A DNA stretch of 64,000 bases from NCBI GenBank assembly GCA_963749085.1, contig CAVVLG010000002.1:370085-434084 (forward strand), written 5' to 3'. Positions 3,223 through 61,653 of the stretch are shown in pieces (within the stretch, counting starts at the first letter, position 1; each line of letters starts with the position of its first letter). The position numbers were made by a program, and so were the translations under genes. The DNA is from Candidatus Adlerbacteria bacterium. GTDB taxonomy: Bacteria > Patescibacteriota > Minisyncoccia > Phycocordibacterales > SBAW01. A model generated the notes under the pieces. That model saw only the letters and a list, made by a program, of their open reading frames with translations. It did no database searches and was not told the DNA's origin.

Positions 3223-3228
3223 GTATAC

Positions 3229-5681: not shown

Positions 5682-5691
5682 GGTACAGATG

Positions 5692-6027: not shown

Positions 6028-6044
6028 GGCCTCATCCTACTCTC

Positions 6045-6815: not shown

Positions 6816-7243
6816 TGTAGCGCCGATTCTATTTTTTTTCGAACACTTCGCAGAAACTCCTTATCCTTAGGGTGCGTGAGCAGTATCAGCGCCTCATCGA
6901 TCGTTACAAATTTCGCGTCGGTTACTTCACTGTCCCGCGGAGCCAATACAAGTTCTTTAGTCCTAAAAAGAAACAGGGTGCGCTTACGATTCCCCAATTC
7001 AATTTGCTCACTTATACCATCTTTTCCGATTGAGTAGCGCTCGTAGGAGCCAAGTTCTGACAGCAATGTCAAATCTGTGATACCCGTTTCCTCGGCGATC
7101 TCGCGTTTAGCTGCAACAAGCGATGTCTCTCCCTGTTCGATCCCGCCTTTGGGGAACGACCATGAATTGCTGTTTTGCTCGACGAGCACAAGCTTGCTGT
7201 CTGTAGTGAGAATAATTCCTCCAGCTGATGCGCGCGGTTGCAT
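6812..7243 (-). CDS. NUDIX hydrolase
   Basis: 143 aa; Nudix box GGIEQGETSLVAAKREIAEETGI; ATGA overlap with ccdA. Confidence 0.8.
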   Translation of the reverse strand: MQPRASAGGIILTTDSKLVLVEQNSNSWSFPKGGIEQGETSLVAAKREIAEETGITDLTLLSELGSYERYSIGKDGISEQIELGNRKRTLFLFRTKELVLAPRDSEVTDAKFVTIDEALILLTHPKDKEFLRSVRKKIESALQ

Positions 7244-7331
7244 ACTATTTTCTTAGTCCTTTGAGCGTCCGCTTATAGCAACTGAAACAGACGTAGAATT
7301 CTTTTATCATACTAGGTATCCCGCTTTCGCC

Positions 7332-35493: not shown

Positions 35494-37260
35494 TTACGGC
35501 TGCCCAAGGTCATCGACTGCCAGCATAGACCGGACTTCTTCCGGAGGCAACGCATCGCTGTCTGGTCGAGGCTTCGACATCTCGGCCTTTGGTGCCACCG
35601 TATGAAGCGTCTCCTTCAGAGACGGGGATTGTCTGGTGACTTGCGCAAGCGCTTCGCGCAAACTTTTAGCGCCTGAGAGATCTGGGCGCGCGGGAGCGGG
35701 ACGCACCGGAGTCGGTGTGTGCGTAGGACGCGGCTGTGGAGTTGGTTCGTTCTCCGCTTTGCTTGCCGCCATACGGTGTTCATAGGCCACACGCTCACCC
35801 ACTAGCTTGGCTTCCGTGTGGCGGATATCGCTCTGGAGCGGGGTATGCGGCACAGATGCCGACCGTGGCGCGGAGGATTCTAAGCTGCGCACCGGAGAAC
35901 TCTTTGGGTATTCTCCTGTTTTGGGAGGGGTAGGAAAGCGTTTGGGCTTGGACGCCTCCGGCACGGGATCGCTTTCATGCCATTTTTTTATCGCTTCTTC
36001 GACTTCGGAACGCGGTTTACCGTAGGTCGCGCGCGAATCTGCAAGCGTCTTTGCAGTCAAGTTGAGCGGTGGCGGATCAAAGGGCGCCAGCGTCGTTGCC
36101 GAGAACGGAGGCGACCCCACCCCGTCTATCATAAGTGTGAGATATATTTGTTTGAACCCGAGATTGACCAAATCGGTTGCCTCAAAGACTGGACTGAATA
36201 CCGTTTCAAGCACTTCGGCATCAAATGGCCCCACACGGAATGCGATAGTCGTCCCCACGTTGCCAAACACGGCATCGCGCACCTCCTCCTCCATTTGCTC
36301 TATGTACTGATGCGCGATGATGAGGTTCAGTTTGTACTTGCGCGCTTCGGAGAGAATGTCCGCGAAGCTCTGGTTGGCAAAGGTTTGGAATTCGTCCACG
36401 TATAAATAGAAGGAGGGCAGGCCTCTGAGCGCCTGCGCCGATGTGTCGGCGCGCGACATCGCCGCCAAATAAATTTTGGTGACCAGCATGGAACCAAGCA
36501 GGGTTGCATTGACCTCCCCCATCCTTCCCTTGGACAGGTTGATGATGAGTATTTTTCGCTCATCCATCATTTTGCGGATGTCGAACGATGATGTTGGCTG
36601 TCCCACGATGTTGCGGATAAGGGGGTTTGAGGTGAACTGCCCCACCTTGTTTTGGATAGCTGGTGTGGCATCTTGGGTGTAGCGGTCGGTATAGTTAGCG
36701 AACTCGTCGACCCAGAAGCTCTTTACTATGGGGTCGGTGACGTTCTCCACGACTTTCCGGCGGAACGCTTTATTGATAAGCATGCGGTTAATATCGAGCA
36801 TCGTGGCACCCTCGTATTCCAGAAGCGCCAGCAGCGTGTTGGAGAGTATGTACTCCATGCGCGCACTCCATGCGTCCACCCATATCTTGCGGAACGCCGA
36901 GAGAAGCCCCGAGACGACCAGGTGACGTTTGTCGTAGCCGACATCCTCCATGACGTTAAATGCTACGGGGTAGTCCATATCGAACGGCGCAAAATACAGC
37001 ACATCTTTGACGCGGTGTTCGGGCACATATTCCAAAATGCGCTCCGCAGTAGAGCCGTGCGGATCGATGAACGCCATACCTTCGCCATTACGGATATCTT
37101 GAATGGCCATGTTCTCAAGCAGGGTGGACTTACCCATACCGGTCTTGCCGATGATATACATATGACGCTCGCGGTCGCGCCGCTTTATACCAAAGGGCGT
37201 TTGCGTCCCGCGGGAATTGGTATGCGCAAAATACGTTATTTTATTGAGGTCTTCAATCAC
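35494..37260 (-). CDS. VirD4/TraG/TraD-like (type IV secretion coupling protein family) P-loop ATPase with long Pro-rich disordered C-terminal tail
   Basis: 588 aa; Walker A YIIGKTGMGKSTLLENM, FIDPHGS, Walker B/Q region ARKYKLNLIIAHQYIEQM; C-terminal ~170 aa low-complexity P/S/T/A-rich. Confidence 0.5.
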   Translation of the reverse strand: MIEDLNKITYFAHTNSRGTQTPFGIKRRDRERHMYIIGKTGMGKSTLLENMAIQDIRNGEGMAFIDPHGSTAERILEYVPEHRVKDVLYFAPFDMDYPVAFNVMEDVGYDKRHLVVSGLLSAFRKIWVDAWSARMEYILSNTLLALLEYEGATMLDINRMLINKAFRRKVVENVTDPIVKSFWVDEFANYTDRYTQDATPAIQNKVGQFTSNPLIRNIVGQPTSSFDIRKMMDERKILIINLSKGRMGEVNATLLGSMLVTKIYLAAMSRADTSAQALRGLPSFYLYVDEFQTFANQSFADILSEARKYKLNLIIAHQYIEQMEEEVRDAVFGNVGTTIAFRVGPFDAEVLETVFSPVFEATDLVNLGFKQIYLTLMIDGVGSPPFSATTLAPFDPPPLNLTAKTLADSRATYGKPRSEVEEAIKKWHESDPVPEASKPKRFPTPPKTGEYPKSSPVRSLESSAPRSASVPHTPLQSDIRHTEAKLVGERVAYEHRMAASKAENEPTPQPRPTHTPTPVRPAPARPDLSGAKSLREALAQVTRQSPSLKETLHTVAPKAEMSKPRPDSDALPPEEVRSMLAVDDLGQP

Positions 37261-45460: not shown

Positions 45461-45850
45461 GCTTAGTTGTTAATCAACTGGAGCGGGCACTTTTGTACCA
45501 AAAAGCCCACCACGTGAGTGAGGGCTTGCGCCCTCCGTATCGGTTTCCCGATACGGCCGGTAAAGACAAATCCCACGCGATGGGGTTTTTGGTCTTTACC
45601 GGTCCACCGACCATATCGTCCGGCAGTATGCCAAACGGGTTAGGTCGTTGCCCTCGCGGGCTATTCAGTTGTGGCTTCATGATATAGCAGGTCGCCATAT
45701 CCGCATAGGGTCAGGCGGAGCAAGTGCCCAGTAGCTTTTAGGGACCAATTCGCGCCACAGAGGACCCCAACAAGCCACAAGGGGTGCAAAACATGGGCGG
45801 GGTGTGGGTAGCTCCACTTCCCCGCCAGTATCCGATATAGTCATGTCTGT

Positions 45851-46450
45851 ATGGCTATGCCAGAGACACGAACGGAGTTGCTCGAGGTGTTAATCAAAAG
45901 CCTCCAGCCGGAGGAGAAAATTGAGGAGCAAAAAAGCTACCGTTACGTTATCTATGCCCGCAAATCAACCGATGATAAAGAAAAACAAGTACGCTCACTA
46001 TCCGACCAGATCGCCGAGTGCAGAGAATATGCCGAAAGAAATGGACTTAGGGTCGGGAAAGACGATGTAATTCAGGAGTCGGAAAGCGCAAAACAGGCTG
46101 ATACGCGCCCGAAATTCCGCATGATGCTCGAGACACTAAAGGCGGGCAAGTACGACGGCATCCTCGCATGGCACCCCGACCGCCTCGCGCGCAACATGAA
46201 AGACGCTGGAGAAATTATAGATCTGCTCGACAAACACATCATCAAAGCGCTCAGGTTCGTGAGTTTTTCCTTCGAAAATACGCCGAGTGGCAAGATGCTC
46301 CTCGGGATTACCTTCGTGTTGTCAAAACAATATAGCGATCAACTAAGTGAGAATGTGAGCCGTGGCAACAAGCGCAGTATCGAGGAGGGCAAATACGTCG
46401 GTCGGGCGAAACATGGTTATTATAAAGACCCCAGTGGCTATCTCCGCCAG
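45851..46450 (+). pseudogene. Large serine recombinase, N-terminal fragment (resolvase catalytic domain + start of recombinase domain) truncated at tRNA-Leu
   Basis: YVIYARKSTDDKEKQVRSLSDQ (catalytic Ser), WHPDRLARN; ...GKYVGRAKHGYYKDPSGYL begins recombinase domain; ORF track extends to 46558 only by reading through the antisense of tRNA-Leu. Confidence 0.65.
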
Positions 46451-46532
46451 TGGGCATGGGGAGACTCGAACTCCCAAGTCTTGCGACATACGCTTCTGAG
46501 ACGTACGCGTATACCAATTCCGCCACATGCCC
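46451..46532 (-). tRNA. tRNA-Leu: tRNA-Leu (anticodon CAG), class II with 13-nt variable arm
   Basis: Hand-folded cloverleaf: GGGCATG/CATGCCC acceptor, anticodon stem TACGT/GCGTA with loop CTCAGAA, T-arm GGGAG-TTCGAGT-CTCCC; no encoded CCA. Confidence 0.75.
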
Positions 46533-46929
46533 GTGATCTTTACCTTACACCAAAATAGGTGATGCAGGACGAATGCCTTTAGCCGGTAGTTTCGGCATTG
46601 ACAGGTTTGACTAACTGCCCTGCATGTGGACAAGCTGTGGAAAAACTGGTGATAAAAGCTCGTTCACAGACTTTACATAAGACGTGTATATTATGGCGGT
46701 GTACACCCGGTAGGTTCTGAGAAGCTGCGTTCTTCCTGCAGTTTCTGAAGTCGCGGGAGAGGAAGGGGCAGTCGGGTCCGTGACTGCATCTGGCGTATTG
46801 AGCCTACTCTGTTACGGGTGTACCTCGGCTGTCCCTTCCATTCAAACAGAGGGTTCCCGTTTGTACCGGCATCGTGTACACCTGTGCCGGTACTGCCAGG
46901 AGCCCGGATAGTCGGCATAGCGTACACCT

Positions 46930-48898
46930 ATGTCCCCTTCCCTGGAACCCCAAGGTTACACGCTGCCGGTAGGCACCAACTTATACGTATCTTTTATGCG
47001 CACGATACGTCAACAGGATATCGTTTCTTTTCTTGCCGTCTTTATTTCCATACTGGTCGCGATCAAATTAAACCAGTACATCTTTTTTCATTTCAATACC
47101 AGCCCGGCGATCATTTTTCTGCCGACAGGTATCGCGCTGGCGGCGGTCTATCTGGGAGGCTATCGCATGTGGGTACCTATAGCCGCTGCATGGTTTCTTG
47201 GCTCGGTGACCAGTTTCTCGCACCCTACTCTCGTAGTGGATGCCGCGGCCACGGTCGGCTACACGCTTGAAGCGGTCATCGGCGGGTATGCACTTGCACG
47301 CCTGAAATTTGTAGGTGATCTGGCACGCACCCGTGACGCCTTTATACTCATCGCCGCTTCCTTGTTGCTTCCCGTCATCGCGCCAAGCATCACCGCGAGT
47401 GTACAGTGGCTGACCCATGCGCTCCCCAGCTCAGTGTGGGTGACGTGGAGCCGCGCGTGGGCCGGAGGCGCACTGAACATACTCGTGTTATTGCCGCTCA
47501 TCACCACCTGGTATAGAGATCGTACAACAAAAACTTTTAGAAAACTGCTTGAAATTACTCTGGCTCTCCTCGCCCTCGCGTTCGTTACCTATCTGGTCTT
47601 TTGGAGCCCGCTTGTGCAGGCTAATGGATTCATTGTGTTGTATGCGCTCTTTGCTATCTTGTTTTGGATAGGATTACGGATGCACCCCAGAATTATTACG
47701 ACTGCCGTGTTCCTAGTCATGCTGCTCAGCTTCGCCGGTAGCCTCATTGCCCGCCCCACCACAACAACGAAGCTTGATCAACAGCTGCTTTCCGATGAAT
47801 TGTTTATCGTTCTCATCGTCCCCATATTTTTAATTCTCGCCGCATTGGTGGAAGAGCGTCGGGTGAAAGAGCGGGAACTTGAAGAAGCGATCGATAAGCT
47901 TTCGCAGGAAGACCAGGCAAAAAATGAATTCCTGGCGACGCTTGCGCATGAGTTGCGCAACCCCCTGGCCCCGATAGTGAGTTCGCTTGAACTCATGAGA
48001 CTGGAGGCTCGGCAGTTGGCTCGACCTAATCTTATGCAGCTCATTGACGTCACCGACCGGTATAATGCGATGATTGTTCATTTACTTGATGATCTTTTGG
48101 ATATTTCCCGCATATCACACAGGAAGTTCAAGCTCCAAAAGGAAAGCTTGGAGTTGCGCCCAGTTGTCGAACACGCGGTACGGACGGTCGATGCTATGTA
48201 CAAAGCCAACAACCACACGCTCTCCGTATCAATGCCGGAGGAGACATTATGGATCGAGGCGGACCCCCTGCGGCTAAGGCAGATCCTTATCAATCTCCTC
48301 AACAATGCCGCAAAATATACCAACCCAGGAGGGAATATTGTATTAAGCGTCGTGTTTGACCCGGATCGTGGCTTGCGCATCAGTGTGAGAGATAACGGGG
48401 TGGGGATCGAACCGCACATGCTGAAGAAAATCTTCGAGCCGTTCGTGCAGTCGGATGAGAGCAGGTCGGGGCTCGGCATTGGACTTTCACTGACTAATCA
48501 TCTGGTGAACCTTCACGATGGCGTAGTGTGGGCGGAGAGCGAAGGATTGGGCAGAGGAAGCGATTTCATCGTAGTCTTGCCCGGCGCTGACAGAGTGCGG
48601 TTGCCACTTCGGGTAGCAACCCCAAAACGCCGCCGAAGAGAATTTCCTTTCATCGGAAAAAGGAGCCAACGAAAACGCTCTATTCTCATTGTTGATGACA
48701 ACAAAGCCGCGGCAGAGAGCCTCGGCAAACTGCTGGAGCACGGCAGTCATACCGTCGCGTTTGCCTATGACGGGTCGAGTGCGATTGCAAAAATGAAGAA
48801 TGCCGAAGCGGACGCGGTACTGCTCGACATTGAACTTCCTGATATGGACGGATATGAGGTCGCACGAAGTTTGCGGCAAGAACATGGTTACAATTCTC
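46930..48898 (+). CDS. Hybrid sensor histidine kinase (MASE1-like membrane sensor, HisKA, HATPase_c, C-terminal receiver) - receiver domain interrupted by IS insertion
   Basis: ORF 46930..48927; EFLATLAHELRNPLAPI (H-box), GLGIGLSL, receiver start RSILIVDDNKAAAESL...LDIELPDMDGYEVARSLRQEHGYNSL then IS; more likely start MRTIRQQ at 46996. Confidence 0.8.
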
Positions 48899-48965
48899 TA
48901 GAACCAATCTCAAAAATACCGTTGTAGACTAAAGGCACAGGGCGTTACCCGTAATTTGCCTGCCC

Positions 48966-49508
48966 ATGCCTCTCACCAACGAGCAGTGGAGCGTCATCGC
49001 TCCGTTTGTCACACCCCTCAAGCGTTTGGAAACCCGCGGCCGTCCCCGGCAGGACGACCGCAAGATACTGGAAGGTATCCTCTGGGCACTGAAGACCGGC
49101 GCCCAGTGGAAGCACCTGCCGAAAGACTACCCGCCCTACCAGACCTGCCATCGCAGGTTCCAGCAGTGGGTGGAGAGCGGCGCCTTTGACCGCATCGTCG
49201 AAGCCCTGGCCATGGACATGGAATACCGGGGGCGCATCAAGCTCAGGAGCTGCTTTCTCGATGCCACCTTCGCGGGGGCAAAAAAGGGGGTCTTGGCGTG
49301 GGACCCACGAAGCGTGGGAAAGGCACCAAGATCATGGCGATTGCGGACGAAGGCTCTCTTCCAGTCGCCGTCTATGTGGCCTCTGCTTCTCCGAGCGAAG
49401 TCCGGTTGGTTGAAGACACGCTTGCCCGGCGATTTACCCGACAGAATCCGCTTCGCCTCACGGCTGACCGAGCATATGATTCCGATCCGCTGGATGGAAC
49501 GCTCCTGA
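48966..49508 (+). CDS. IS5-family transposase OrfA (N-terminal DUF4096-like part)
   Basis: 180-aa ORF; slippery heptamer A AAA AAG at 49280..49286 allows -1 shift into OrfB. Confidence 0.75.
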   Translation: MPLTNEQWSVIAPFVTPLKRLETRGRPRQDDRKILEGILWALKTGAQWKHLPKDYPPYQTCHRRFQQWVESGAFDRIVEALAMDMEYRGRIKLRSCFLDATFAGAKKGVLAWDPRSVGKAPRSWRLRTKALFQSPSMWPLLLRAKSGWLKTRLPGDLPDRIRFASRLTEHMIPIRWMERS

Positions 49509-49738
49509 ACAAATACCGCATCAAACTCATTTCACCGCATCGCAGAGGCCGGGTGCGCAGAGCAACACAGGACGGCAGGGCGCTGCGCTCCTACAAGCGC
49601 CGGTGGAAGATTGAGCGGCTGTTCGCGTGGATGCACAACTGGAGAAAGCTCGTGACTCGCTACGAATACAAACTGCAGAACTTTGCCGCCTTCGTGAAGC
49701 TCGCGTGCATCATGCTATTACTCAAACATTATTTTTGA
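49298..49738 (+). CDS. IS5-family transposase OrfB (DDE domain), expressed as OrfAB fusion by -1 frameshift
   Basis: 146-aa ORF in -1 frame relative to OrfA; predicted fusion ...DATFAGAKKGGLGVGPTKRGKGTKIMAIADEG... Confidence 0.75.
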   Translation: MGPTKRGKGTKIMAIADEGSLPVAVYVASASPSEVRLVEDTLARRFTRQNPLRLTADRAYDSDPLDGTLLNKYRIKLISPHRRGRVRRATQDGRALRSYKRRWKIERLFAWMHNWRKLVTRYEYKLQNFAAFVKLACIMLLLKHYF

Positions 49739-49749
49739 GACTGGTTCTA

Positions 49750-49923
49750 GTACTTGTTGCGCTCACGGGCTACGGACAGGAAGAGGATAAAATAAAAGCG
49801 CAAGAGGCCGGATTCAATCATCACCTGACCAAGCCTGTTAGTATTGCAGATGTCGAAGCTATCCTCGCGAAGGATACATCCAACCCCCCCCGGCACGCGG
49901 ACGACAATTCTTTAACTAAGTAG
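49750..49923 (+). pseudogene. 3' fragment of the interrupted histidine-kinase receiver domain
   Basis: Removing IS plus one TA restores ...LRQEHGYNSLVLVALTGYGQEEDKIKAQEAGFNHHLTKPVSIADVEAIL... in the kinase frame. Confidence 0.8.
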
Positions 49924-50080
49924 GTCACTCTGTTCGCCCAATCCATCAATCTTTATGCCTCTCATGGGCTGCGCAGATACACGCCATACACAAAATACTA
50001 CGCTCCACTACGGGCAGCTTTTCTGATTATTGAAATAGCCTCCCCAGCCCAAACACCCAATAAGGTATACTAGTCTGCAT

Positions 50081-50575
50081 ATGCTAGAGCAATATGCATC
50101 GTTCTTCGCAGCGAGTTCGCAGGCATCGGCCGCTTTGGTCGGGCTTCTTTTTGTTGCACTTTCTATTGACGTCGACCTCGAGCGGGGATTTCGGTTCAAG
50201 CAATTTGCATTTTCTGAAACCGCGTTCATATCGCTTGGGGGTATCTTTATCATCTCACTTTTGGCGCTATTGCCCTCTGGCCTGTTGCTGATGACGGGTG
50301 CCAGTATCGTCCTTTCTGTCATCGGCATTTGGGGCTTGCTGCGGCGCACACACCCCCAGATCAAGCTGGTGCTGCTGCCAGTGGATTTTTGGCAGGTCTT
50401 TGTGACCGTCGGCGTCTATATATGGCTCGCGGGCACAAGCCTATGGTTATTGACGGTGGAAGAGTCAGTAACTTTGTTAAATATATTCTGCATGTTGCTG
50501 GGGATACTATATGTGCTTTCTCTCATACGTGCATGGCGCTCACTTCTTATCATCAAACATTATATGTCTAATTAG
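50081..50575 (+). CDS. Hypothetical membrane protein (4-5 TM)
   Basis: 164-aa hydrophobic ORF. Confidence 0.45.
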   Translation: MLEQYASFFAASSQASAALVGLLFVALSIDVDLERGFRFKQFAFSETAFISLGGIFIISLLALLPSGLLLMTGASIVLSVIGIWGLLRRTHPQIKLVLLPVDFWQVFVTVGVYIWLAGTSLWLLTVEESVTLLNIFCMLLGILYVLSLIRAWRSLLIIKHYMSN

Positions 50576-50646
50576 GGGGAGATTTACCGCTTCATATTCG
50601 CTACAGCACCCCCATAAGGATTTCTTGGGCGATTTCAATGTACCAG

Positions 50647-50772
50647 ACTTAGGCGTCCCGGTCGGGGGCACTGGCATGCGCGGATATTTGAATGACGTTC
50701 GAACCGTCATTCTATAGGGGAAGACTGAGTTTAGCTATAAGCCGCTTACGCTGATGGCAAAGGTGACACAGC
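50647..50772 (+). repeat. ~125-bp repeat element, copy A (direct repeat of 54659..54784, ~80% identity), contains hairpin GAATGACG-TTCGAAC-CGTCATTC
   Basis: By-eye alignment cccggtcgggggcacYggcRtgYgcggatatttgaatgacgtYcgaaccRtcattcta...ctgagttt...cttacg...atggcRaagg. Confidence 0.6.
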
Positions 50773-50834
50773 TTCGTTAAACTGTCCCGCACAGTCCAAA
50801 TAGATACTTTCGCCAGTCGTGATATACTTAAAGT

Positions 50835-51014
50835 ATGAATAAGACTCGCAAGAAAAATGTCTCTTTGAGTGACCTCTACCAGGAAGTCCGGGCCTTGCGC
50901 CGGGACGTGTCGGTGTTCATACCCACCGAGTCCCTAGACGATTACAAAAACAAAACGGAAATAGTTGCCGCACATCGCGATGCGCGAAAACAAGCTCGAG
51001 CCAGAGAGGTATAG
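50835..51014 (+). CDS. Putative antitoxin (59 aa), partner of RelE/ParE toxin
   Basis: Hand-translated MNKTRKKNVSLSDLYQEVRALRRDVSVFIPTESLDDYKNKTEIVAAHRDARKQARARGV; below ORF-track length cutoff; stop 2 bp before toxin ATG. Confidence 0.45.
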   Translation: MNKTRKKNVSLSDLYQEVRALRRDVSVFIPTESLDDYKNKTEIVAAHRDARKQARAREV

Positions 51015-51016
51015 CT

Positions 51017-51271
51017 ATGCGGATTATCCGCACACTGAAGTTTGAAAAGATGCCCGAACGGCTGCCCGCATCCGTACAAAAGGCGTACGTCGAGCAAGAA
51101 ACGATTTTGCAGGGGAATCCCAAAGATCCTCGCCTCCATTTGAAGAAATTGCAAGGGATTTATGACACCTATTCCTTCCGCATAACCCGCTCTTACCGAG
51201 CACTTTTCATTTGGGAAGTTAATACCGTCTGGCTGTTCGCCATCGGTGATCGAAAAGACATTTATCGATAG
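51017..51271 (+). CDS. relE: Type II toxin, RelE/ParE superfamily
   Basis: 84 aa; KDPRLHLKKLQGIYDTYSFRITRSYRALFIWEVNTVWLFAIGDRKDIY. Confidence 0.7.
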   Translation: MRIIRTLKFEKMPERLPASVQKAYVEQETILQGNPKDPRLHLKKLQGIYDTYSFRITRSYRALFIWEVNTVWLFAIGDRKDIYR

Positions 51272-51301
51272 AGGTTTCGATCTCACTAGAGCCGTTGATG
51301 A

Positions 51302-53167
51302 CTACTGACCCAAAACCCCTCTCGTCAATGGGCCCACATAGCCCGCTACAGGAGATATATTGTTGAGCATTTGGTACTGCATGACCGCGTTTCGCGTCAG
51401 CGGCCCGAAATAGCCGGTCACCAATGCCTCAGGATAGTAGCCATTGTTTGCCAGGTGGGTCTGAAGCGCAATCACGTCAGGGCCTTGCACCCCTTGATAT
51501 AAGTCGCGGGAAAGCATGAGGGGCGTGGTCACTGCGGCTTCCGCGGCAGGGATATCAACCTGTTCTTCGCCGGCTTGCGGGGTGACGTTAAACCGCGAGG
51601 CAGTGGTGAATCTGCCGTATTGGTCATAGGAGTAAAGCGCATAGTGATATTCGACGCCGTTTTCAACGTCAGTATCCGTAAAAGTCGTTGAGGGGCCGTC
51701 GTAAATGATATCGCCATCAATGCGCGAGAGTACTGCGTCGCTGCCTTCTTTTTTGACGATAACCGTATGGATAGTTCCGTTTTGGATGCCGGTGTCTTTG
51801 AGCCAGTCGAAGGAGACCTCCCCGTCGAGTGGCGTAACGTTGAGAAGCAGCGGATGTGAATGCACCACCGGCAGGCCGCCACCTCCCTGGGCCGCTGCCG
51901 CTTGTGCTCCTTGCTCGGCAATAGTTGCCAGGACTTCTGCACTGCTTGAAGCAGTGGGTTCGGAAGATACGGGTTCAGTCGGCGTCGAAGTACCGGAAGA
52001 CAACAATGATTCGGTGGTAAATGTCCTGTCCTTGCCGAATGCTGTGTTTCCGTCGCTGTCGGCAGCGACGATACGGAAGTGATACAAGGTCGAGGGAGTG
52101 AGAGTATTGATAGTTCGACTGTGCGACGTCTGCAACGTTTGGTCGTTTCCAAGAGATGAGCCATAGGACGTGCTCGTCCCGTATTGAATATCGGATGTCG
52201 CCGGTTCAGAAGTTGTCCACGAAATGGTTATCGTCGAGGTTGAAAGAGAACTCGTCGCCACGTTCGAGATGATCGGATATATAGGCGCAGCTTGCACTTT
52301 GAGCGTTGTGAAAGTTTCGGCGAGACTGTACGCCGTTTCGCCGGAAGAGGTTTTTGAGATGGCGCGATAATAATATTTAGTGTTCGGTGTTAATGATGAG
52401 AGAGACGCCGAATGAGATTGGGATATAGGTCCTAAGGCGGTGAGTGAGCCGTAGGTATTGGTTGGGCCGTATTCGACTTGCGAGTCGGCATCCTGGTTAG
52501 TTTGCCATGTGATAGTGGCTGTCGAGGAACTTACTTGTGACGTCTCGGTATTGGAGATTGCCAGAGCGGGCGCCGGGGGAGTCGATGAAGCAGACTCCAT
52601 GTTCTCTGTCGTTGTCGCTGCGGAAGTTGCTTCGGTTTGTGTTGTCTCGTTATTCTCCGGAGTAGAGGTTGCAGCTGTTGAAGTCGATGTCTCTTCAGCT
52701 GGCGGCTCAACTGGCTCCGATACAGGAGTCGCGAGCGTCGTGAATGTCTCATCACCTGTTATGGCCGCCGTCCCCGCGCTGTCTACGACCACGACGCGAT
52801 AGTGGTAGAGGGTCTCCGGTGTGAGATTCTCAAGGACAAATGATGGCGAGGTAGTGAACTCGCTCGTGAGCGGGGTTGAAGCGCCGTACTCCTCAGTGGT
52901 GCCATACTCGACATACCCTTGCACCATCTCATCTGAATTCACATCTATTTCTGCGCTTGTGTCGGTGATATTGGTAACAGAAATGCTTGAAATTGAGGGG
53001 CCGACCGGAGCGGGAGGGGCCATTTCTTCGGTCGGCGGCGGAGTCATTTCCTCTACAGGAGGAGCAGTATCATTGGTAGTATCCGCTGGGAGCGTTTGGG
53101 CAAGAACTGACGCGATTGGGGTAAAGAGAATGGAACAAGAGAGTACTGCGGAGAATATTTTGATCAT
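51302..53167 (-). CDS. Secreted protein: signal peptide, three fibronectin-type-III-like repeats, C-terminal peptidoglycan-binding (PG_binding_1-like) domain
   Basis: 621 aa; MIKIFSAVLSCSILFTPIASVLA; repeated YHYRVVVVDSAGTAAITGDETFTT / YYYRAISKTSSGETAYSLAETFTT / YHFRIVAADSDGNTAFGKDRTFTT; C-terminal DVIALQTHLANNGYY...GYFGPLTRNAVMQYQ. Confidence 0.65.
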   Translation of the reverse strand: MIKIFSAVLSCSILFTPIASVLAQTLPADTTNDTAPPVEEMTPPPTEEMAPPAPVGPSISSISVTNITDTSAEIDVNSDEMVQGYVEYGTTEEYGASTPLTSEFTTSPSFVLENLTPETLYHYRVVVVDSAGTAAITGDETFTTLATPVSEPVEPPAEETSTSTAATSTPENNETTQTEATSAATTTENMESASSTPPAPALAISNTETSQVSSSTATITWQTNQDADSQVEYGPTNTYGSLTALGPISQSHSASLSSLTPNTKYYYRAISKTSSGETAYSLAETFTTLKVQAAPIYPIISNVATSSLSTSTITISWTTSEPATSDIQYGTSTSYGSSLGNDQTLQTSHSRTINTLTPSTLYHFRIVAADSDGNTAFGKDRTFTTESLLSSGTSTPTEPVSSEPTASSSAEVLATIAEQGAQAAAAQGGGGLPVVHSHPLLLNVTPLDGEVSFDWLKDTGIQNGTIHTVIVKKEGSDAVLSRIDGDIIYDGPSTTFTDTDVENGVEYHYALYSYDQYGRFTTASRFNVTPQAGEEQVDIPAAEAAVTTPLMLSRDLYQGVQGPDVIALQTHLANNGYYPEALVTGYFGPLTRNAVMQYQMLNNISPVAGYVGPLTRGVLGQ

Positions 53168-53358
53168 AATTTTGAAATCTCTTTTAAGTCTTTGTCCGGC
53201 AGGTAGAGAATAAGTAAACCGATAATAATTCCGCCAATAGCTGTCCAGATATGGCTACCGCCAAAGAGATACACATCCATTTTGTCGAGCAGATACCAAA
53301 TGCCACGCCATACCAGCACTATCCCGACCACTATTGCTATAATCCGTACAGTCTTCAT
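53164..53358 (-). CDS. Small membrane protein (2 TM)
   Basis: 64-aa hydrophobic ORF, ATGA overlap with downstream gene. Confidence 0.4.
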   Translation of the reverse strand: MKTVRIIAIVVGIVLVWRGIWYLLDKMDVYLFGGSHIWTAIGGIIIGLLILYLPDKDLKEISKL

Positions 53359-53399
53359 AGCCGTAAGTGTAGCACTCTAATGTCTGCTACACTGCAGGT

Positions 53400-53699
53400 A
53401 TGTTGCTGAAGGAGTTTATACATTTTTTGAAAGAGTATAAGGTCGTGTCCCTAGCAGTGGCTTTTATCATGGGTACGGCAGCTACTAACTTGGTTGACTC
53501 TTTGGTAAAGAATATATTCCTTCCTTTGCTGGCACCACTCCAAGCGGCGGAGACTTGGGATAAAGCGGTGCTCTCTATAGGACCGGTCACACTAACCTAT
53601 GGAGCGTTCCTCGACGAGCTTATTAATTTTATTATCCTCGGCTTCCTGGTGTTCCTGTTGGCGCGAAAGCTGCTCACCATGGAAAAGGAAGGAAAATAA
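53400..53699 (+). CDS. mscL: Large-conductance mechanosensitive channel MscL
   Basis: 99 aa; LKEFIHFLKEYKVVSLAVAFIMGTAATNLVDSLVKNIFLPLL ... TYGAFLDELINFIILGFLVFLL. Confidence 0.85.
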   Translation: MLLKEFIHFLKEYKVVSLAVAFIMGTAATNLVDSLVKNIFLPLLAPLQAAETWDKAVLSIGPVTLTYGAFLDELINFIILGFLVFLLARKLLTMEKEGK

Positions 53700-53702
53700 T
53701 CT

Positions 53703-54347
53703 ATGACATTTCTTTTTGAAACGAGGCCTTTCAGTGAGGAGAGCAAGCGCGCAGCGGTGGACAAGCTGCTTGAAGCGGCCTTGCCTGATAGAGACTTTTA
53801 TTTATTGGTCATCGGCGCGGCGCTCTTTGCGCTTGGCGGCATCGCTTTGGACAGTATTCCGGTCCTTATCGGTGCCATGATAGTGGCTCCACTTGCCGCA
53901 CCCATCTTGGCGCTGGGACTTGGCATTGCGACGGGCGATTGGTATCTTGCTGTGCGTTCGGTCATAACCTTGATAGCGGCATCGCTTGCCGCGGCGATCG
54001 TGGCAGCGATAGCGGCACACCTGCTTCCGCCGTTTAGCATAGATGGTACCTTTATATCCTTTGTGGCACACCCTCTGTATGACGCTGCTATCGCCTTTAT
54101 AGCCGGTGCCATAGCTGCATATGGCTATGTGCGGGCAAAAGCAGGCGGAGCATTGACTGGAATCGGCGTTGCGGTATCACTTATGCCACCTTTGGTTGCC
54201 AGTGCGCTTGCGTTTGGCACGCTTGATGTGCCGCTCCTGAAGGAATCATCGCTTATCTTTATATTGAACGTAGTGGGTATACTCGTAGGTTCTATACTCG
54301 TCTTTTCCCTATTCGGGATGCACGCGTATTACGAAAGGAAATCCTAG
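53703..54347 (+). CDS. DUF389-like hydrophobic membrane protein
   Basis: 214 aa, Ala/Gly-rich TM helices; family assignment tentative. Confidence 0.45.
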   Translation: MTFLFETRPFSEESKRAAVDKLLEAALPDRDFYLLVIGAALFALGGIALDSIPVLIGAMIVAPLAAPILALGLGIATGDWYLAVRSVITLIAASLAAAIVAAIAAHLLPPFSIDGTFISFVAHPLYDAAIAFIAGAIAAYGYVRAKAGGALTGIGVAVSLMPPLVASALAFGTLDVPLLKESSLIFILNVVGILVGSILVFSLFGMHAYYERKS

Positions 54348-54550
54348 CCGCTTTTATTTAAAAAGAAAAAGATAGAGGGACAGGAGCACCAGCACAATAA
54401 GTGAGGTTTGCATCACGAGTGCAGAATCCCACAGCGATACACCGAACACGATTACTGCGCCGATAAGCGGGAGCACTCCTGTGGTGATGTTTTTCATACA
54501 GCTAAGTATATCAGGTTATTTTTAGAGCTCGTACTCATCTTCTTCTATCT

Positions 54551-54566
54551 TATGACGGCGCTAGGG
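54551..54566. repeat. 16-nt copy of the tRNA-Ile 3' end (gcgctagggatcgaac): att-site-like remnant
   Basis: Identical to 57957..57972 within the intact tRNA-Ile gene. Confidence 0.45.
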
Positions 54567-54658
54567 ATCGAACTAAGAAAACGCTTTCGTTGAGCCATAA
54601 AAAATTTTGAGCAAAAAAGGGCGAACTGGACATGTCCAAAAAATGGCTCTGTTGAGCC

Positions 54659-54784
54659 ATCCCGGTCGGGGGCACCGGCGTGTGCGGATATTTGAATGAC
54701 GTCCGAACCATCATTCTACGGGGAAAAACTGAGTTTGGGTATAAACCACTTACGTTAATGGCGAAGGCAGTGCAGGGTGATTGA
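54659..54784 (+). repeat. ~125-bp repeat element, copy B (see 50647..50772)
   Basis: Same as copy A. Confidence 0.6.
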
Positions 54785-54810
54785 GTCTACCCAGCCAGAT
54801 TTTGTTGAAA

Positions 54811-55041
54811 TCAACTTAACCACTCTCCTTCAGGTATGCCTGACTGTTTGATTATCGAGCTTAATGTCTTAGGGTGGATGGTATCAGATCCATGATATTG
54901 CACATGGGTCATGCGTAGCTGTCCATCCTTGAATCCCCGAAAATAATGGTGGCTTCCCCGAATGTGATGGGGAACGAAACTATTCGCCTTTAGAAATTTC
55001 TCTACATCCTTGAAGGTCCAGTTTGATTTACCTCTAGGCAT
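54811..55041 (-). CDS. hicA: Type II toxin HicA (mRNA interferase)
   Basis: 76 aa; KDVEKFLKANSFVPHHIRGSHHYF...IHPKTLSSIIKQSGIPEGE. Confidence 0.8.
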   Translation of the reverse strand: MPRGKSNWTFKDVEKFLKANSFVPHHIRGSHHYFRGFKDGQLRMTHVQYHGSDTIHPKTLSSIIKQSGIPEGEWLS

Positions 55042-55386
55042 TTACACAGTGGCAAGACTTGCAACACCCGCTTTGTAGATGCCCGAAAGCGGGGATAGAA
55101 CGTTCCCCTTGTCTTTTACTGCTTGTGTTTGTGTGGCGGATGCCCACTTTGATTCATATTCCTCCTCCACGTCCTGATTGAGAATTGAATTGACCTGTTG
55201 CGGACGAAAACCTTTCAATTCCCTTGCTGACTCAAGGTATCCCTGCACAGCCTCCTGCAGTTCAAATTCAACTATTTTCGGGTCAATCCCCGTGACCACG
55301 ATGTTGAATTCAAGCGCCACGCCCACCCAGGAGTCGCCATCCTTAAAGATCATCCAACGGTATACACCACTTTTTGCCGTATTCAT
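55042..55386 (-). CDS. hicB: HicB antitoxin (UPF0150/RNase H-like fold)
   Basis: 114 aa; YRWMIFKDGDSWVGVALEFNIVVTGIDPKIVEFELQEAVQGYLESAREL; immediately upstream of hicA. Confidence 0.65.
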   Translation of the reverse strand: MNTAKSGVYRWMIFKDGDSWVGVALEFNIVVTGIDPKIVEFELQEAVQGYLESARELKGFRPQQVNSILNQDVEEEYESKWASATQTQAVKDKGNVLSPLSGIYKAGVASLATV

Positions 55387-55603
55387 GGGATCAGTCTACC
55401 ACAAACGAGCCCCTCCCGTGAAGGAGGGGCTCTCGGAGGCCGAAGCCACTTGTAGTCAGACGGTACACCTTGGCAGATGAAAAGCAAGTGTATCCAGGGT
55501 TGCCACAATCGAGAGAGAAAGCCGGTCGTCTGCGAGATGAATCTCACAAATCGACCGGTCTTTTTGCCGTGCGTCTCAACTCTATCATTTCCCCCAATGA
55601 GGC

Positions 55604-55816
55604 TTAGATGCGGATCATTCTTCCGGGACGGCGGATGGCGTACGCAGGTGGCTTGGGGTGTCGGTGTAGCGGATAGCGAAGCATTTTGTAGACGTCAAAA
55701 ATTCTTTTGAATTCTTTTTTCACGCCAGTGAAGGTCTTTGCCTGCACGGCGATATCGCGTTCGATGCATTGACCGACCCACCATCTGGATTCGCGAAAGA
55801 CGATTGCGCGCATATC
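55604..55816 (-). CDS. HicB-like antitoxin-domain protein (short)
   Basis: ORF 55604..55927; MRAIVFRESRWWVGQCIERDIAVQAKTFTGVKKEFKRIF resembles HicB core. Confidence 0.35.
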   Translation of the reverse strand, partial: DMRAIVFRESRWWVGQCIERDIAVQAKTFTGVKKEFKRIFDVYKMLRYPLHRHPKPPAYAIRRPGRMIRI

Positions 55817-56051
55817 ACGACCCATTTTCGATAGAGTTGACGATGTTATAACCAGGCCAATTGGATTTGCCGTCCTCTTTAAACCACCACACTGAGGACA
55901 TAAGGCCTCCTTGCGTTGACGTGTCAACGCCGATTCTTCGGATGATCCGCGTGCAGTCTGGAAAGTTCGGTGTGCCTTTTGGGTGTGCCTCTACTAGTTC
56001 ACATGGTTCCCCGTTTTCAAACTGGATTGACTTTGTCCAATCGAGTGGCAT
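55815..56051 (-). CDS. Hypothetical small protein (possible toxin partner)
   Basis: 78-aa ORF overlapping start of HicB-like gene. Confidence 0.3.
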   Translation of the reverse strand: MPLDWTKSIQFENGEPCELVEAHPKGTPNFPDCTRIIRRIGVDTSTQGGLMSSVWWFKEDGKSNWPGYNIVNSIENGS

Positions 56052-56198
56052 GGTTCTCCTCCAAAGTGTTGGTTGCTTCTAAAGAAAATATACCATGGTC
56101 AGATTAAATTCTTGTCCCCTGGTTGCACAGGGTCGCGGGAAAATCCCGAATGTAGTTCCAGTATAGCATTAAGGATTTAACCATCAAAAAACACCACG

Positions 56199-56384
56199 AT
56201 GAGATACGCTCACTTAGCCCCCTCAACGCTTCGAGCCGCCATCAACCAGTTGAACCCGAAAGCAATGATTTCTGGAAGTTTTGGGCAACCGGTGGTCAAC
56301 CGATGGATTGAGACAGTGCAACAAGAAACAAAAAATCCTTTACCTGCAACGCAAAATTTACAAAAAAATTTGTGCGGGCGCTAG
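56199..56384 (+). pseudogene. Tyrosine-integrase 3'-terminal fragment (~50 aa, contains catalytic-Tyr region MRYAHLAPSTLRAAI)
   Basis: Near-identical to the C-terminus of the 57238..57921 integrase remnant; followed at 56380..56410 by a degraded copy of the tRNA-Ile 3' end. Confidence 0.6.
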
Positions 56385-56410
56385 GATCGAACCCAGTCGC
56401 AACAATTCTG
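56380..56410 (-). repeat. Degraded copy of tRNA-Ile 3' end (T-arm + acceptor; ggttcgatcc-tagcgcccgcac): att-site remnant
   Basis: Compare with 57952..57980. Confidence 0.55.
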
Positions 56411-56736
56411 AAGAAGCGCCAATCGAGCAAGAGAAATAAGGATTAATGGCTTAAACTAAAGGATTACTGACAAAATGTAAGATTACCAATCGTACTCACT
56501 AACTACCAAGTTTAACCAACTTTTATCACTTTTTGGGCAACCCGTGGGCAACCGCGGAATTATCAAAAAGGAACAGTACAGGGGGAAAAGTGATAAAGAT
56601 TGTGTGGAAAACACTGCTAGGCGGTGGTTTTTATGCTGTGTGTTTTTTACCGGCTTTGGTGGGTGACTAAGTGAACACTCTCTCAAGGGAAATCCGCCGT
56701 TCTGCTACGTTAAAGAGAGTTTCGGCCACAACCGAA

Positions 56737-57006
56737 TCAAAACTTCAATTTATATATCCAGTCGTGCGGACCGATGGTGAGAAAGAGCGCCGTATTGCCG
56801 TCGATAAAGCGTAGCGCGATGCGGTAGCTCCTGTCGACACGGATACTCCAAATCTCCTTGCTCTTGGGTTCAAGCTTCTCGGTGTGGAGCGACGGATAAA
56901 AGGGATTTGTGCGGAACAAAGCTTCCTGCTTCTCGGCCTTCTTTTGAACAGCTGTAGGTAGTTTGAGATACCGCTTTCGGAACTCATCCGTTACCACCAC
57001 GTCCAT
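56737..57006 (-). CDS. Type II toxin, RelE/ParE superfamily
   Basis: 89 aa; HTEKLEPKSKEIWSIRVDRSYRIALRFIDGNTALFLTIGPHDWIYK. Confidence 0.6.
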   Translation of the reverse strand: MDVVVTDEFRKRYLKLPTAVQKKAEKQEALFRTNPFYPSLHTEKLEPKSKEIWSIRVDRSYRIALRFIDGNTALFLTIGPHDWIYKLKF

Positions 57007-57015
57007 AAACAGCGA

Positions 57016-57222
57016 CTATTTTCGCCTAAGCTCGCGCAGCGAGGTGACTGTATATACCCGCCCGGCGCGGTAGTCCCGCTCGGCCCGCTCGATACTGCGC
57101 AGAAAATCAGGATTGTAGAACCCGAGGTTGGAGGCAAGACGCTCCAGCCGATCGGCGTCGAGCTCCACTAGCACCTTCTTCCCCTTCGATCCAGGGCGGA
57201 TAGTTATCATCGTCTTGCTCAT
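57016..57222 (-). CDS. Putative antitoxin partner
   Basis: 68-aa ORF directly upstream of toxin. Confidence 0.4.
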   Translation of the reverse strand: MSKTMITIRPGSKGKKVLVELDADRLERLASNLGFYNPDFLRSIERAERDYRAGRVYTVTSLRELRRK

Positions 57223-57237
57223 AGAGCTAGTATAGCA

Positions 57238-57921
57238 TAGTCCCCTTGTACGGTCATTTTTACGCGTACCTGGCTCAAATGTCCTCCACCGAAAACCGAT
57301 TATCTGTCGAAAGACGAATGCGGATTACTGCTATCTCATGCACGCGGCGTCGTATACGAGATGCTACTACTCGCCCTCCGCACGGGCATGAGGCGCGGTG
57401 AAATTATCGGCCTGCAGTGGTCATCCGTTGATTGGCAGACCCAGAACATCACGGTGCGGCATTCATATTGCGAGTACACGAAAGAGTTAGGCTCAACGAA
57501 AAGCAACCGCGAACGGCATATCCCTATGGACGCGGACGTATACGCAGTCCTCTTCAACAGAAAGCGCGACACGGGCTATGTATTCGTGGACGCAGATAAT
57601 AAGCACTTCAATGGCAGATATCTTGAGCGTCGACTAAAAGAACTCTGTAACCAAGTTGGATTGCGCAATATCGGATGGCATACGCTGCGACACACGTTTG
57701 CTTCGCACTTAGCGATGAGTGGAGTACCGCTCAACGCCGTGCAAGCACTCCTAGGTCACTCCGCCATCACTACCACGATGCGATACGCGCACTTAGCACC
57801 CTCAACGCTTCGAGCCGCTATCGACCAGCTGAACCCAAAATCAATGATTACTGACAGTTTTGGGCAACCGGTGGGCAACCAGTGGGTTGAGACATTGCAG
57901 CAAAAAACAAAAAATCCATAA
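57238..57921 (+). pseudogene. Tyrosine recombinase/integrase, 5'-truncated (catalytic domain only; no N-terminal arm/core-binding domain or start codon)
   Basis: In-frame ...YLSKDECGLLLSHARGVVYEMLLLALRTGMRRGEIIGLQW...WHTLRHTFASHLAMSGVPLNAVQALLGHSAITTTMRYAHLAP (R..HxxR..Y); frame opens right after a stop at 57235. Confidence 0.7.
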
Positions 57922-57951
57922 CGTGCAACACAAAATCGACAAAAAAATTTG

Positions 57952-58024
57952 TGCGGGCGCTAGGGATCGAACCTAGGACCTTTCGAGTATCAGTCGAATG
58001 CTCTACCAACTGAGCTACACCCGC
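57952..58024 (-). tRNA. tRNA-Ile: tRNA-Ile (anticodon GAU)
   Basis: Hand-folded: GCGGGTG/CGCCCGC acceptor, D-arm GCTC-AGTTGGTA-GAGC, anticodon stem TTCGA/TCGAA loop CTGATAC, T-arm CTAGG-TTCGATC-CCTAG. Confidence 0.85.
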
Positions 58025-58187
58025 AGTTTCGAAACTATATCAAAGGAAAAGTGCCTTTACCAGTTATCCACACATTTCTCAAATTCGGCTAAAAAACCCT
58101 TGCACTCTGAGCTGAGGGGGGTATAGTAAAAAAGTTTTCTGAGGATTGTCCTCAAATTTTGTCAGTAACTAACAATGCACATCAGAG

Positions 58188-58631
58188 ATGCAAACAACAA
58201 GTGCGCTCCGGGAAATAGTCCCGAGTAGCGCGGTAATCGGGCTTGATGACGAAGCAATTCGTCGCGATTATGAGGAGCAGGGCGCGTGGGGTCTTCTCAC
58301 GTCTATCGACCTGCATGAGTGCGATAGAGAGACAGTGCGCGATGCCGAGGCTATAAAACGCTTCGTGGTTGAGTTATGCGAGCGTATCGACATGAAGCGT
58401 TTTGGAGAGTGCACGGTCGTCAATTTCGGCGAAGATGAGCGCGTGGCGGGCTTTTCGATGTTTCAACTCATCGAAACCTCCTGCATCTCGGCACACTTTG
58501 CCAACCAGACGAACACAACCTATCTCGATATTTTCTCGTGTAAATACTATACGCCAGTCGAGGCGGCTGAGTTCGCCAAGGAATTCTTTGGTGCCTCAGA
58601 GTATAACCTGACGTATACGCTCAGGAAGTAG
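58188..58631 (+). CDS. speH: S-adenosylmethionine decarboxylase proenzyme (pyruvoyl-dependent, class 1B)
   Basis: 147 aa; WGLLTSIDLHECD, FSMFQLIETSCISAHF (E-S/S processing site), YLDIFSC. Confidence 0.85.
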   Translation: MQTTSALREIVPSSAVIGLDDEAIRRDYEEQGAWGLLTSIDLHECDRETVRDAEAIKRFVVELCERIDMKRFGECTVVNFGEDERVAGFSMFQLIETSCISAHFANQTNTTYLDIFSCKYYTPVEAAEFAKEFFGASEYNLTYTLRK

Positions 58632-58644
58632 AGGGGAAGTAAGA

Positions 58645-58680
58645 GCCCCGGCAAGCAAATGCCGGGGCCTTTTGGTGTTT
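58645..58680 (+). terminator. Rho-independent terminator after speH
   Basis: GCCCCGGCAagcaaaTGCCGGGGC followed by cttttggtgttt. Confidence 0.6.
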
Positions 58681-58732
58681 GGGGTTGCTCACCCCTTACA
58701 GATCGAGTTTTTCCTTTTTGTCAGATAAGTTT

Positions 58733-59583
58733 TAGAACCAGTCTCAAAAATAATGTTTGAGTAATAGCATGATGCACGCGAGCTTCACGAAGGCGGCAAA
58801 GTTCTGCAGTTTGTATTCGTAGCGAGTCACGAGCTTTCTCCAGTTGTGCATCCACGCGAACAGCCGCTCAATCTTCCACCGGCGCTTGTAGGAGCGCAGC
58901 GCCCTGCCGTCCTGTGTTGCTCTGCGCACCCGGCCTCTGCGATGCGGTGAAATGAGTTTGATGCGGTATTTGTTCAGGAGCGTTCCATCCAGCGGATCGG
59001 AATCATATGCTCGGTCAGCCGTGAGGCGAAGCGGATTCTGTCGGGTAAATCGCCGGGCAAGCGTGTCTTCAACCAACCGGACTTCGCTCGGAGAAGCAGA
59101 GGCCACATAGACGGCGACTGGAAGAGAGCCTTCGTCCGCAATCGCCATGATCTTGGTGCCTTTCCCACGCTTCGTGGGTCCCACGCCAAGACCCCCTTTT
59201 TTGCCCCCGCGAAGGTGGCATCGAGAAAGCAGCTCCTGAGCTTGATGCGCCCCCGGTATTCCATGTCCATGGCCAGGGCTTCGACGATGCGGTCAAAGGC
59301 GCCGCTCTCCACCCACTGCTGGAACCTGCGATGGCAGGTCTGGTAGGGCGGGTAGTCTTTCGGCAGGTGCTTCCACTGGGCGCCGGTCTTCAGTGCCCAG
59401 AGGATACCTTCCAGTATCTTGCGGTCGTCCTGCCGGGGACGGCCGCGGGTTTCCAAACGCTTGAGGGGTGTGACAAACGGAGCGATGACGCTCCACTGCT
59501 CGTTGGTGAGAGGCATGGGCAGGCAAATTACGGGTAACGCCCTGTGCCTTTAGTCTACAACGGTATTTTTGAGATTGGTTCTA
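58733..59583 (-). mobile_element. IS5-family insertion sequence, copy 2 (inverted relative to copy 1), flanked tTA...TAg
   Basis: OrfA 58974..59516 and OrfB 58744..59184 identical to copy 1. Confidence 0.85.
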
Positions 59584-59742
59584 GGAGCTTTAACCGCCAT
59601 TGGTCTTCGACGAGCTTGTGATGCCGGTCATGGCAGTTCATTCGCTACTCCTCGGTTGCCGCGGGACCACCCCACGAAAAACTATCCTACTGAGCTGAAT
59701 CTACCACGTTCCTTATTTTAAACAATGACTACAGTGGATAAC

Positions 59743-59773
59743 AAAAATCACCCCACATGGGGTAATTTTTGTT
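59743..59773. terminator. Bidirectional hairpin terminator (ACCCCACATGGGGT flanked by A-run and T-run), ~250 nt downstream of 16S 3' end
   Basis: acaaaaatcACCCCAcaTGGGGTaatttttgtt. Confidence 0.5.
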
Positions 59774-60019
59774 AAAAACTGAATACGTAATTGAGTCCAC
59801 ACCTAAGCAAACACCTTTCTCTTGTTCCGCTCTTTATCTATTTTCCGTTCTGTACTCCAAAACGTACTCTGTAGATATCAAGTAGCCATACGTCTCTGTA
59901 TTTACATACAGTGGCCAATAACGAATGCGATTTAGAGTTAGCATCATCACTCTACTTTCCTTGCGGAAAATAATCGCCGATTGAGTTGCACCCTCGTACG
60001 AGAGGCACAACACCATTTC

Positions 60020-61478
<1,459 letters not shown>

Positions 61479-61653
61479 GAATATAAGATTCAGTTACGAA
61501 TCTAGACTCGATGAACGGAACAAGAGAAAAGTGTCTTCTCTTGTTTTTCTTGCTTGCTGCCTTTGCCAGTTGAATGGCAAAGGACTTATTTTTTGATCGG
61601 TGTGATCAATTCTTACAATTTTCTCAATTACGTATTCAGTTTTCAACGAACAA

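Follow-up and report, generated by a model that had tools for sequence, protein, structure and literature searches.

The stretch analyzed here, called the window throughout, comprises 64,000 nucleotides from a Candidatus Adlerbacteria bacterium (Patescibacteriota; contig CAVVLG010000002.1, positions 370,085 to 434,084), and its subject is a pair of insertion sequence (IS) copies of the IS5 family that lie in inverted orientation around 9 kb of other genes, one of them within a gene for a hybrid histidine kinase. A repeat search of positions 47000-61500 returned a single long inverted pair of 858 nt (48898-49755 and 58727-59584). Base-by-base comparison of 48898-49749 with the reverse complement of 58733-59584 gave 852 identical bases out of 852, with mismatches beginning directly beyond the identical 852-bp block on each side of both IS copies; the IS body itself measures 847 bp (GAACC...GGTTC). 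A preliminary description of this DNA had placed two identical inverted copies here, encoding identical OrfA and OrfB proteins, carrying terminal inverted repeats of about 20 bp, and flanked by TA duplications in cTAg and tTAg contexts. Its coordinates were correct, the alignment it had proposed as a check found no substantial divergence between the copies, OrfA and OrfB are indeed the same in both, and the repeats and flanks read as it had stated. The copies, their ends, and the two parts of the interrupted kinase gene are as follows:

46930..48900, + strand: kinase 5′ part, encoding MASE1-HisKA-HATPase and the N-terminal half of the receiver domain; truncated by copy 1
48901..49747, + strand: IS copy 1, with TA at 48899-48900 and 49748-49749; terminal motif located at 48901-48918 and 49730-49747
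48901..48923, + strand: left inverted repeat (IRL) of copy 1, matching the right inverted repeat (IRR) at 49725-49747 in 20 of 23 positions
49750..49923, + strand: kinase 3′ remnant, encoding the C-terminal receiver part; inside the bracketed segment
58735..59581, − strand: IS copy 2, with a body identical to that of copy 1 and TA at 58733-58734 and 59582-59583

The terminal inverted repeats read GAACCAATCTCAAAAATACCGTT and GAACCAGTCTCAAAAATAATGTT, with the same 20/23 matching positions in both copies. When the whole window was searched for the terminal motif GAACCARTCTCAAAAATA with up to three mismatches allowed, four matches were obtained, corresponding to the four IS ends, against 0.09 expected by chance, and the repeat pair is therefore not a chance occurrence. 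On the + strand the flanks are c-TA[IS]TA-g at copy 1 and t-TA[IS]TA-g at copy 2. A 4-bp target duplication (CTAG) was rejected, the sequence being CTAG at copy 1 and CTAA at copy 2, as was a 3-bp duplication (CTA), under which the IS ends would be asymmetric and for which relatives of the element have T or G as the left outer base. The G+C content of the IS is 57.7%, above that of the window (50.6%) and of the bracketed segment (49.7%), which is compatible with horizontal acquisition of the element.

Copy 1 interrupts the receiver domain of a MASE1 hybrid histidine kinase: the open reading frame (ORF) arriving from upstream ends at 48927, within the IS, and the ORF emerging from the IS reads on as ...LVLVALTGYGQEEDK...HLTKP. 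Deletion of 48901-49749 (849 bp, the IS plus one TA) joins the two parts in frame into a 714-aa MASE1-HisKA-HATPase_c-Response_reg protein, in which Response_reg is matched over positions 1-109 of 111. Aligned with ten intact homologs of 683-730 aa (47-63% identity), the rebuilt kinase is gap-free across the junction, where EHGYNS is followed directly by LVLVALTGYGQEEDK, and both halves are without frameshifts or stops. By this reconstruction, copy 1 represents a genuine transposition into a working gene, with inactivation of the kinase, and the 2-bp length of the target duplication is confirmed. The source annotation of the 518,058-bp contig holds only a 665-aa truncated kinase; that this apparently short gene is an IS-disrupted pseudogene is useful for annotation. 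In the preliminary description the kinase had served as a landmark outside the bracketed segment; it is in fact the target of copy 1, and its 3′ end lies inside. Because that 3′ end forms the first 174 bp of the supposed cargo, the bracketed DNA predates the IS, and because the kinase is continuous through copy 1, the assembled orientation is the ancestral one; the number of inversions since the insertion of copy 1 would thus be zero or even. Copy 2 is found in non-coding DNA, 436 nt downstream of the 16S rRNA 3′ end; a speH-like gene stops ∼100 nt before it, and the terminator-like hairpin of that gene (58645-58668) ends just short of the IS.

The locus would be accounted for by two independent insertions, less than 10 kb apart, of a single 847-bp IS5-family element, whether by cut-and-paste or copy-out transposition: copy 1 would have entered the kinase receiver domain and copy 2 the interval between the 16S rRNA gene and the speH-like gene, and the 9 kb between them would be the pre-existing, dispensable DNA of a decayed tRNA-Ile-associated island, not DNA delivered by the IS. 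We consider it highly probable that the two copies arose in this way, as independent insertions into the resident chromosome that inactivated the kinase and left native DNA between them. The insertions are probably recent and the IS is probably still active, and the proximity of the copies may reflect either regional tolerance of insertions or local hopping. The predicted empty-site sequences are ...AATTCTCTAGTACTTGTT... for copy 1 and ...GATAAGTTTTAGGAGCTTTAACC... for copy 2.

The closest intact homologs of the kinase (62% identity; contigs L084, L085, and L086) are found in gene neighborhoods unlike this locus, and their genes may be paralogs. On one of these contigs (L084, JGI 3300079509), a cytochrome oxidase cluster with COX1-COX4 and UbiA at 3014-7504 adjoins the 62%-identical intact homolog P0007; such a cluster would be unusual beside P0007 if its organism also belongs to the Patescibacteria.

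The transposase of the element is encoded in two overlapping frames, whose features in copy 1 are as follows:

48966..49508, + strand: OrfA, 180 aa, with DUF4096 and the first catalytic Asp, D99
49280..49286, + strand: A AAA AAG, a slippery heptamer read in the zero frame of OrfA; predicted −1 frameshift site
49289..49333, + strand: predicted stem-loop 2 nt 3′ of the heptamer, a candidate frameshift stimulator
49298..49738, + strand: OrfB, 146 aa when counted as an ORF, with entry by frameshift at 49286; holds D168 and E217 of the DDE triad

Translation of OrfA to the heptamer, one base back, and then in the OrfB frame gives a 257-aa fusion product that matches the NCBIfam model NF033580 (IS5 family transposase) with 222 bits, against a cut-off of 110 bits, over positions 5-258 of 258, and that also exceeds the cut-offs of Pfam DUF4096 (PF13340) and DDE_Tnp_1 (PF01609). 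The assignment to the IS5 family and the programmed −1 frameshift heptamer, both proposed in the preliminary description, are thereby upheld, the heptamer lying in the OrfA zero frame and the fusion covering the full family model. In an alignment of 20 sequences (the IS and 19 homologs of 51-59% identity), D99, D168, and E217 are invariant. D99 is encoded before the frameshift site, D168 and E217 after it, no single ORF holding the full triad; since D99 is in OrfA and the other two residues are in OrfB, the catalytic triad needs the frameshift. Of 41 distinct related loci in GTDB representative genomes, from Acidobacteriota, Desulfobacterales, Chloroflexota, Bacteroidota, Verrucomicrobiota, and others, 39 have a −1 frame change at an identical alignment position, on the motif AAAAAAG or GAAAAAG followed by GGGG. 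Such conservation across relatives argues that the frameshift is no private mutation, and the transposase is predicted to arise by programmed −1 ribosomal frameshifting that joins OrfA and OrfB. The stem-loop at 49289-49333 has a predicted folding energy of −24.8 kcal/mol (z = −3.2), with one of 200 shuffled sequences folding as well, and may stimulate the frameshift.

Some 40 relatives of the IS from various phyla have its size, ends, TA flanks, and frameshift site in common. They are 830-870 bp long with ends that read TA followed by GAAGCYATCTCAWAAAT, and of ten relatives with pattern-defined ends, nine are flanked by TA on either side, the base beyond it being C or T; from these sequences the target of the clade would be Y-TA-R, with duplication of the 2-bp TA. 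The best protein match among 5.8 billion proteins has 59% identity, and a single scan of GTDB representative genomes gave a best match of 62%, the IS itself being absent from them. The best match in PLSDB is to Leptospira weilii (55%), and among named elements only ISDds9, from Deinococcus deserti, turned up as a relative (∼51% identity). Exact-protein look-ups with OrfA, OrfB, an alternative OrfB start, and the truncated kinase gave no record. The nearest relatives occur in phyla outside the Candidate Phyla Radiation (CPR), which suggests horizontal acquisition, and the IS appears to be a previously uncatalogued member of a large clade of IS5 elements that spans phyla and is marked by lengths of ∼850 bp, TA duplication, and frameshifting. 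The combined traits fit the IS427-like subgroup of the IS5 family in the ISfinder scheme, to which the IS would probably belong. The likeness extends to a length of ∼850 bp, short imperfect inverted repeats starting with GA, DUF4096 together with DDE_Tnp_1, a −1 frameshift at A AAA AAG that links two ORFs, and CTAG-like (YTAR) targets of which 2 bp, TA, are duplicated; the differences are that no close catalogued element was found in these searches and that the host here is a member of the Patescibacteria. In keeping with this host, SecA encoded in the window has 78-81% identity to proteins named Candidatus Paceibacterota, Minisyncoccia, and Adlerbacteria. The boundary between the IS427 and IS1031 subgroups is blurred in published papers, and the subgroup of ISDds9 is not given in PMC2669436. 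The locus thus provides a new IS5-family element defined with its exact ends, target, and frameshift site, and no new mechanism.

The bracketed segment beyond the kinase remnant, together with the gene that lies past copy 2, contains the following features:

49924..58732, no strand assigned: rest of the bracketed segment, resident chromosomal island DNA, including a membrane ORF
50835-51271: weak ParE-like pair (E = 0.0055, below cut-off)
51302-53167: FN3/PG_binding_1 protein, 621 aa
53400-53699: MscL
53703-54347: DUF389 protein
54811-55386: HicA with an adjacent partner, the HicA match being solid
56737-57222: HigB/ParE-like toxin with a small partner, borderline
57361-57921: tyrosine integrase of Xer/phage type, C-terminal half only, abutting tRNA-Ile
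57951-58024: tRNA-Ile(GAT)
58188-58631: speH-like gene (AdoMet_dc)
60020..61485, − strand: 16S rRNA gene

The assignments of mscL, the secreted FN3/PG_binding_1 protein, tRNA-Ile, and speH made earlier hold for this segment, whereas the three toxin-antitoxin pairs that had been listed alongside them stand only in part: the HicA match is firm, the HigB/ParE-like match borderline, and the ParE-like match weak. Rfam in permissive mode detected no RNA in the bracketed segment except tRNA-Ile. Remnants of the tRNA-Ile 3′ end are found at 56361-56393 and 54557-54573 (17 nt), and the 3′ end of the integrase is repeated beside the first of them; the direct repeat so formed, of tRNA-Ile and integrase 3′ ends (56193-56396 and 57772-57976), has 87% identity over 205 nt. 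These repeats have the appearance of scars left by repeated integration at tRNA-Ile, each block with a toxin-antitoxin pair, and the region as a whole resembles decayed integrative islands stacked at that tRNA gene. Dispensable island DNA of this kind may tolerate IS insertions in an otherwise dense genome.

Another direct repeat of 108 nt (85% identity, 50656-50763 and 54660-54767) brackets the block of FN3 protein, MscL, and DUF389 genes; it holds a T-arm-like hairpin (GACG TTCGAAC CGTC) and has no Rfam or ARAGORN match. The tRNA-Ile(GAT) gene lies 2 kb downstream of the 16S gene on the same strand, with the opposite-strand speH-like gene and IS copy 2 between them. No 23S gene is present in the ∼60 kb downstream of the 16S gene within the window, and the rRNA genes appear to be unlinked.

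The sole other occurrence of the locus was found in run ERR12036785: a search for exact copies of the speH-like protein led to a Logan short-read contig (L001) of 9040 bp from this run. This contig corresponds to window positions 49722-58761 with two mismatches (51361 and 53362), contains both inner IS junctions, and stops 28-29 nt inside the IS at each end. A de Bruijn assembler is expected to stop at a repeat on both ends. Because L001 ends in the IS on both sides, two IS junctions are required. ERR12036785 and the window differ by two single-nucleotide polymorphisms (SNPs) over 9 kb and, at a distance of 2.4 kb, by a 1022-nt indel; since both inner junctions are present in ERR12036785 despite this divergence, the insertions predate it, small as it is. 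The same contig bears on whether one of the copies is an assembly artefact, a repeat duplicated or misplaced, as the perfect identity of the copies and the origin of the 518-kb contig in a metagenome-assembled genome might lead one to suspect. The inner segment in ERR12036785 ends in IRR on both sides, which needs two copies; the four junctions in the window are distinct, each having a unique flank and a proper TA; and the junctions of copy 1 split a conserved gene exactly. An artefact is on these grounds scarcely credible, duplication of copy 2 during assembly is very unlikely, and the second copy, whose reality the preliminary description had left to be checked against reads, is real.

The preliminary description had also considered the 10.7-kb unit composite-transposon-like, with the bracketed genes as its cargo. 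Tn903 is a composite transposon with two inverted copies of IS903, itself of the IS5 family, and a unit of that type, inserted here in one piece, would explain why genes of accessory type lie between inverted, identical IS copies whose ends are intact and why the outermost flanks are both TA. The outer TA is nonetheless uninformative, as any single insertion of this IS makes TA, and the position of the kinase is decisive: its two halves flank copy 1 alone, whereas insertion of the whole unit would have put them at the outer ends, and the 3′ end (49750-49923) continues in frame into the segment, so that the DNA there is resident. Tn903 shares with this locus the two identical inverted IS5-family copies around a few kilobases of other genes, but it moves as a unit, has a 9-bp outer duplication, and carries a selectable resistance gene, whereas here the inner DNA continues a disrupted host gene. 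Nor was the unit found elsewhere: the IS, its junction, and the 10.7-kb unit were absent from JGI metagenome contigs, IMG/VR, PLSDB, and phage records, and the left junction (as filled or empty site) and the IRL gave zero matches in JGI metagenome contigs. In genomes generally, IS pairs at close spacing are no more frequent than expected by chance (PMC1676026). Arrival as one composite transposon is accordingly a highly improbable origin for the unit, and by the kinase reading frame composite delivery is refuted, although future mobilization of the 10.7-kb unit by its outer IRL-IRL ends is possible in principle.

A further proposal was that the copies make the enclosed 9 kb an invertible unit. 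Perfect inverted homology of 852 bp is an adequate substrate for RecA-dependent recombination, and the short-read assembly breaks at both IS copies, where orientation is unconstrained; inversion is plausible to this extent, but it is generic to such repeats, and the locus yielded no site-specific invertase, no promoter that could be switched, and no second orientation. The assembled orientation is ancestral; the only recombinase inside the segment is the N-terminally truncated tyrosine integrase by tRNA-Ile, which scored 27 bits against invertase models with a cut-off of 222; and with breakpoints within the IS copies no promoter or gene would be switched, so that inversion would be near-neutral and change gene orientation only. 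GC skew across the window was too noisy to indicate orientation. We regard active inversion of the segment by homologous recombination, with both orientations coexisting, as unlikely. IS-mediated chromosomal inversions are known for IS481 copies in Bordetella and for IS copies in Yersinia pestis, which likewise offer inverted identical IS copies as RecA homology; there the alternative orientations are documented by genome comparison or long reads, whereas here a single one, the ancestral, is seen. With the Hin/Gin and FimB/E switches the locus shares only a segment bounded by inverted repeats, since those systems rely on short inverted repeats (14-30 bp), an invertase of their own, and a promoter or alternative gene ends whose switching alters expression, none of which is present. 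The age of the insertions invites a related question, as the copies could be old and kept identical by gene conversion: ERR12036785, with its two SNPs and 1022-nt indel, already has both inner junctions. The kinase halves carry no frameshifts or stops, and this lack of further decay argues that the disruption is young, so that long-standing gene conversion seems improbable. Recent transposition, which had been claimed from the identity of the copies, therefore stands as the simplest reading of 100% identity, but not as the sole one, as gene conversion or consensus polishing could homogenize the copies.

Several points weigh against two independent, recent insertions as a full account of the locus. 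The IS copy count covers 64 kb of the 518-kb contig, not the whole genome; the perfect identity of the copies could come from gene conversion or polishing; and no empty-site allele of either insertion was found in the scans of JGI metagenome contigs and IMG/VR. As to orientation, if the contig was built from short reads, the 852-bp inverted repeats would leave the segment unfixed by the assembly graph; the kinase argument gives the ancestral orientation and not the present one in every cell; and the TA duplications, being palindromic and the same at both copies, cannot record past inversions. The locus may be flagged as assembly-ambiguous, since short reads cannot fix its orientation. With two independent insertions still taken as the origin of the copies, the pair creates a potential for inversion or composite mobilization, no trace of either event being present at the locus. 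There is an outside chance that it is functionally live in a CPR population, with the 9-kb island occurring in both orientations or the 10.7-kb unit mobile as a new composite transposon; if true, the locus would be among the rare instances in which IS-driven plasticity has been directly observed in a streamlined genome of the Patescibacteria. Long reads that showed both orientations would establish IS-mediated structural polymorphism in a reduced genome, still within known biology.

Traces of other mobile elements lie upstream of the kinase gene. In region 45851-46558, an ORF at 45851 encodes the first 199 aa of a large serine recombinase and is joined directly to the 3′ end of a tRNA-Leu gene. 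The tRNA-Leu gene is placed as follows:

46450-46532, − strand: tRNA-Leu

Contig L082 of ERR12036785 is 100% identical to the window up to 46448 and then has 1022 extra nt before the same tRNA-Leu sequence; the extra sequence completes a recombinase of at least 549 aa, the corresponding junction in the window being 46448/46449. Comparison of the two assemblies suggests that the window genome has a 1022-nt internal deletion in the serine recombinase gene or that the sample is polymorphic for it. A LOOT RNA (Rfam RF03000) was detected at 45520-45646 on the − strand, ∼200 nt upstream of the serine recombinase gene, with 82.8 bits against a gathering threshold of 46.4. A 588-aa ORF at 35494-37260 on the − strand has weak matches to TraD/VirD4-like coupling proteins, all far below cut-offs. 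Taken with the serine recombinase at tRNA-Leu, this ORF is a hint that an integrated element of conjugative type may occupy about 35-46 kb of the window.

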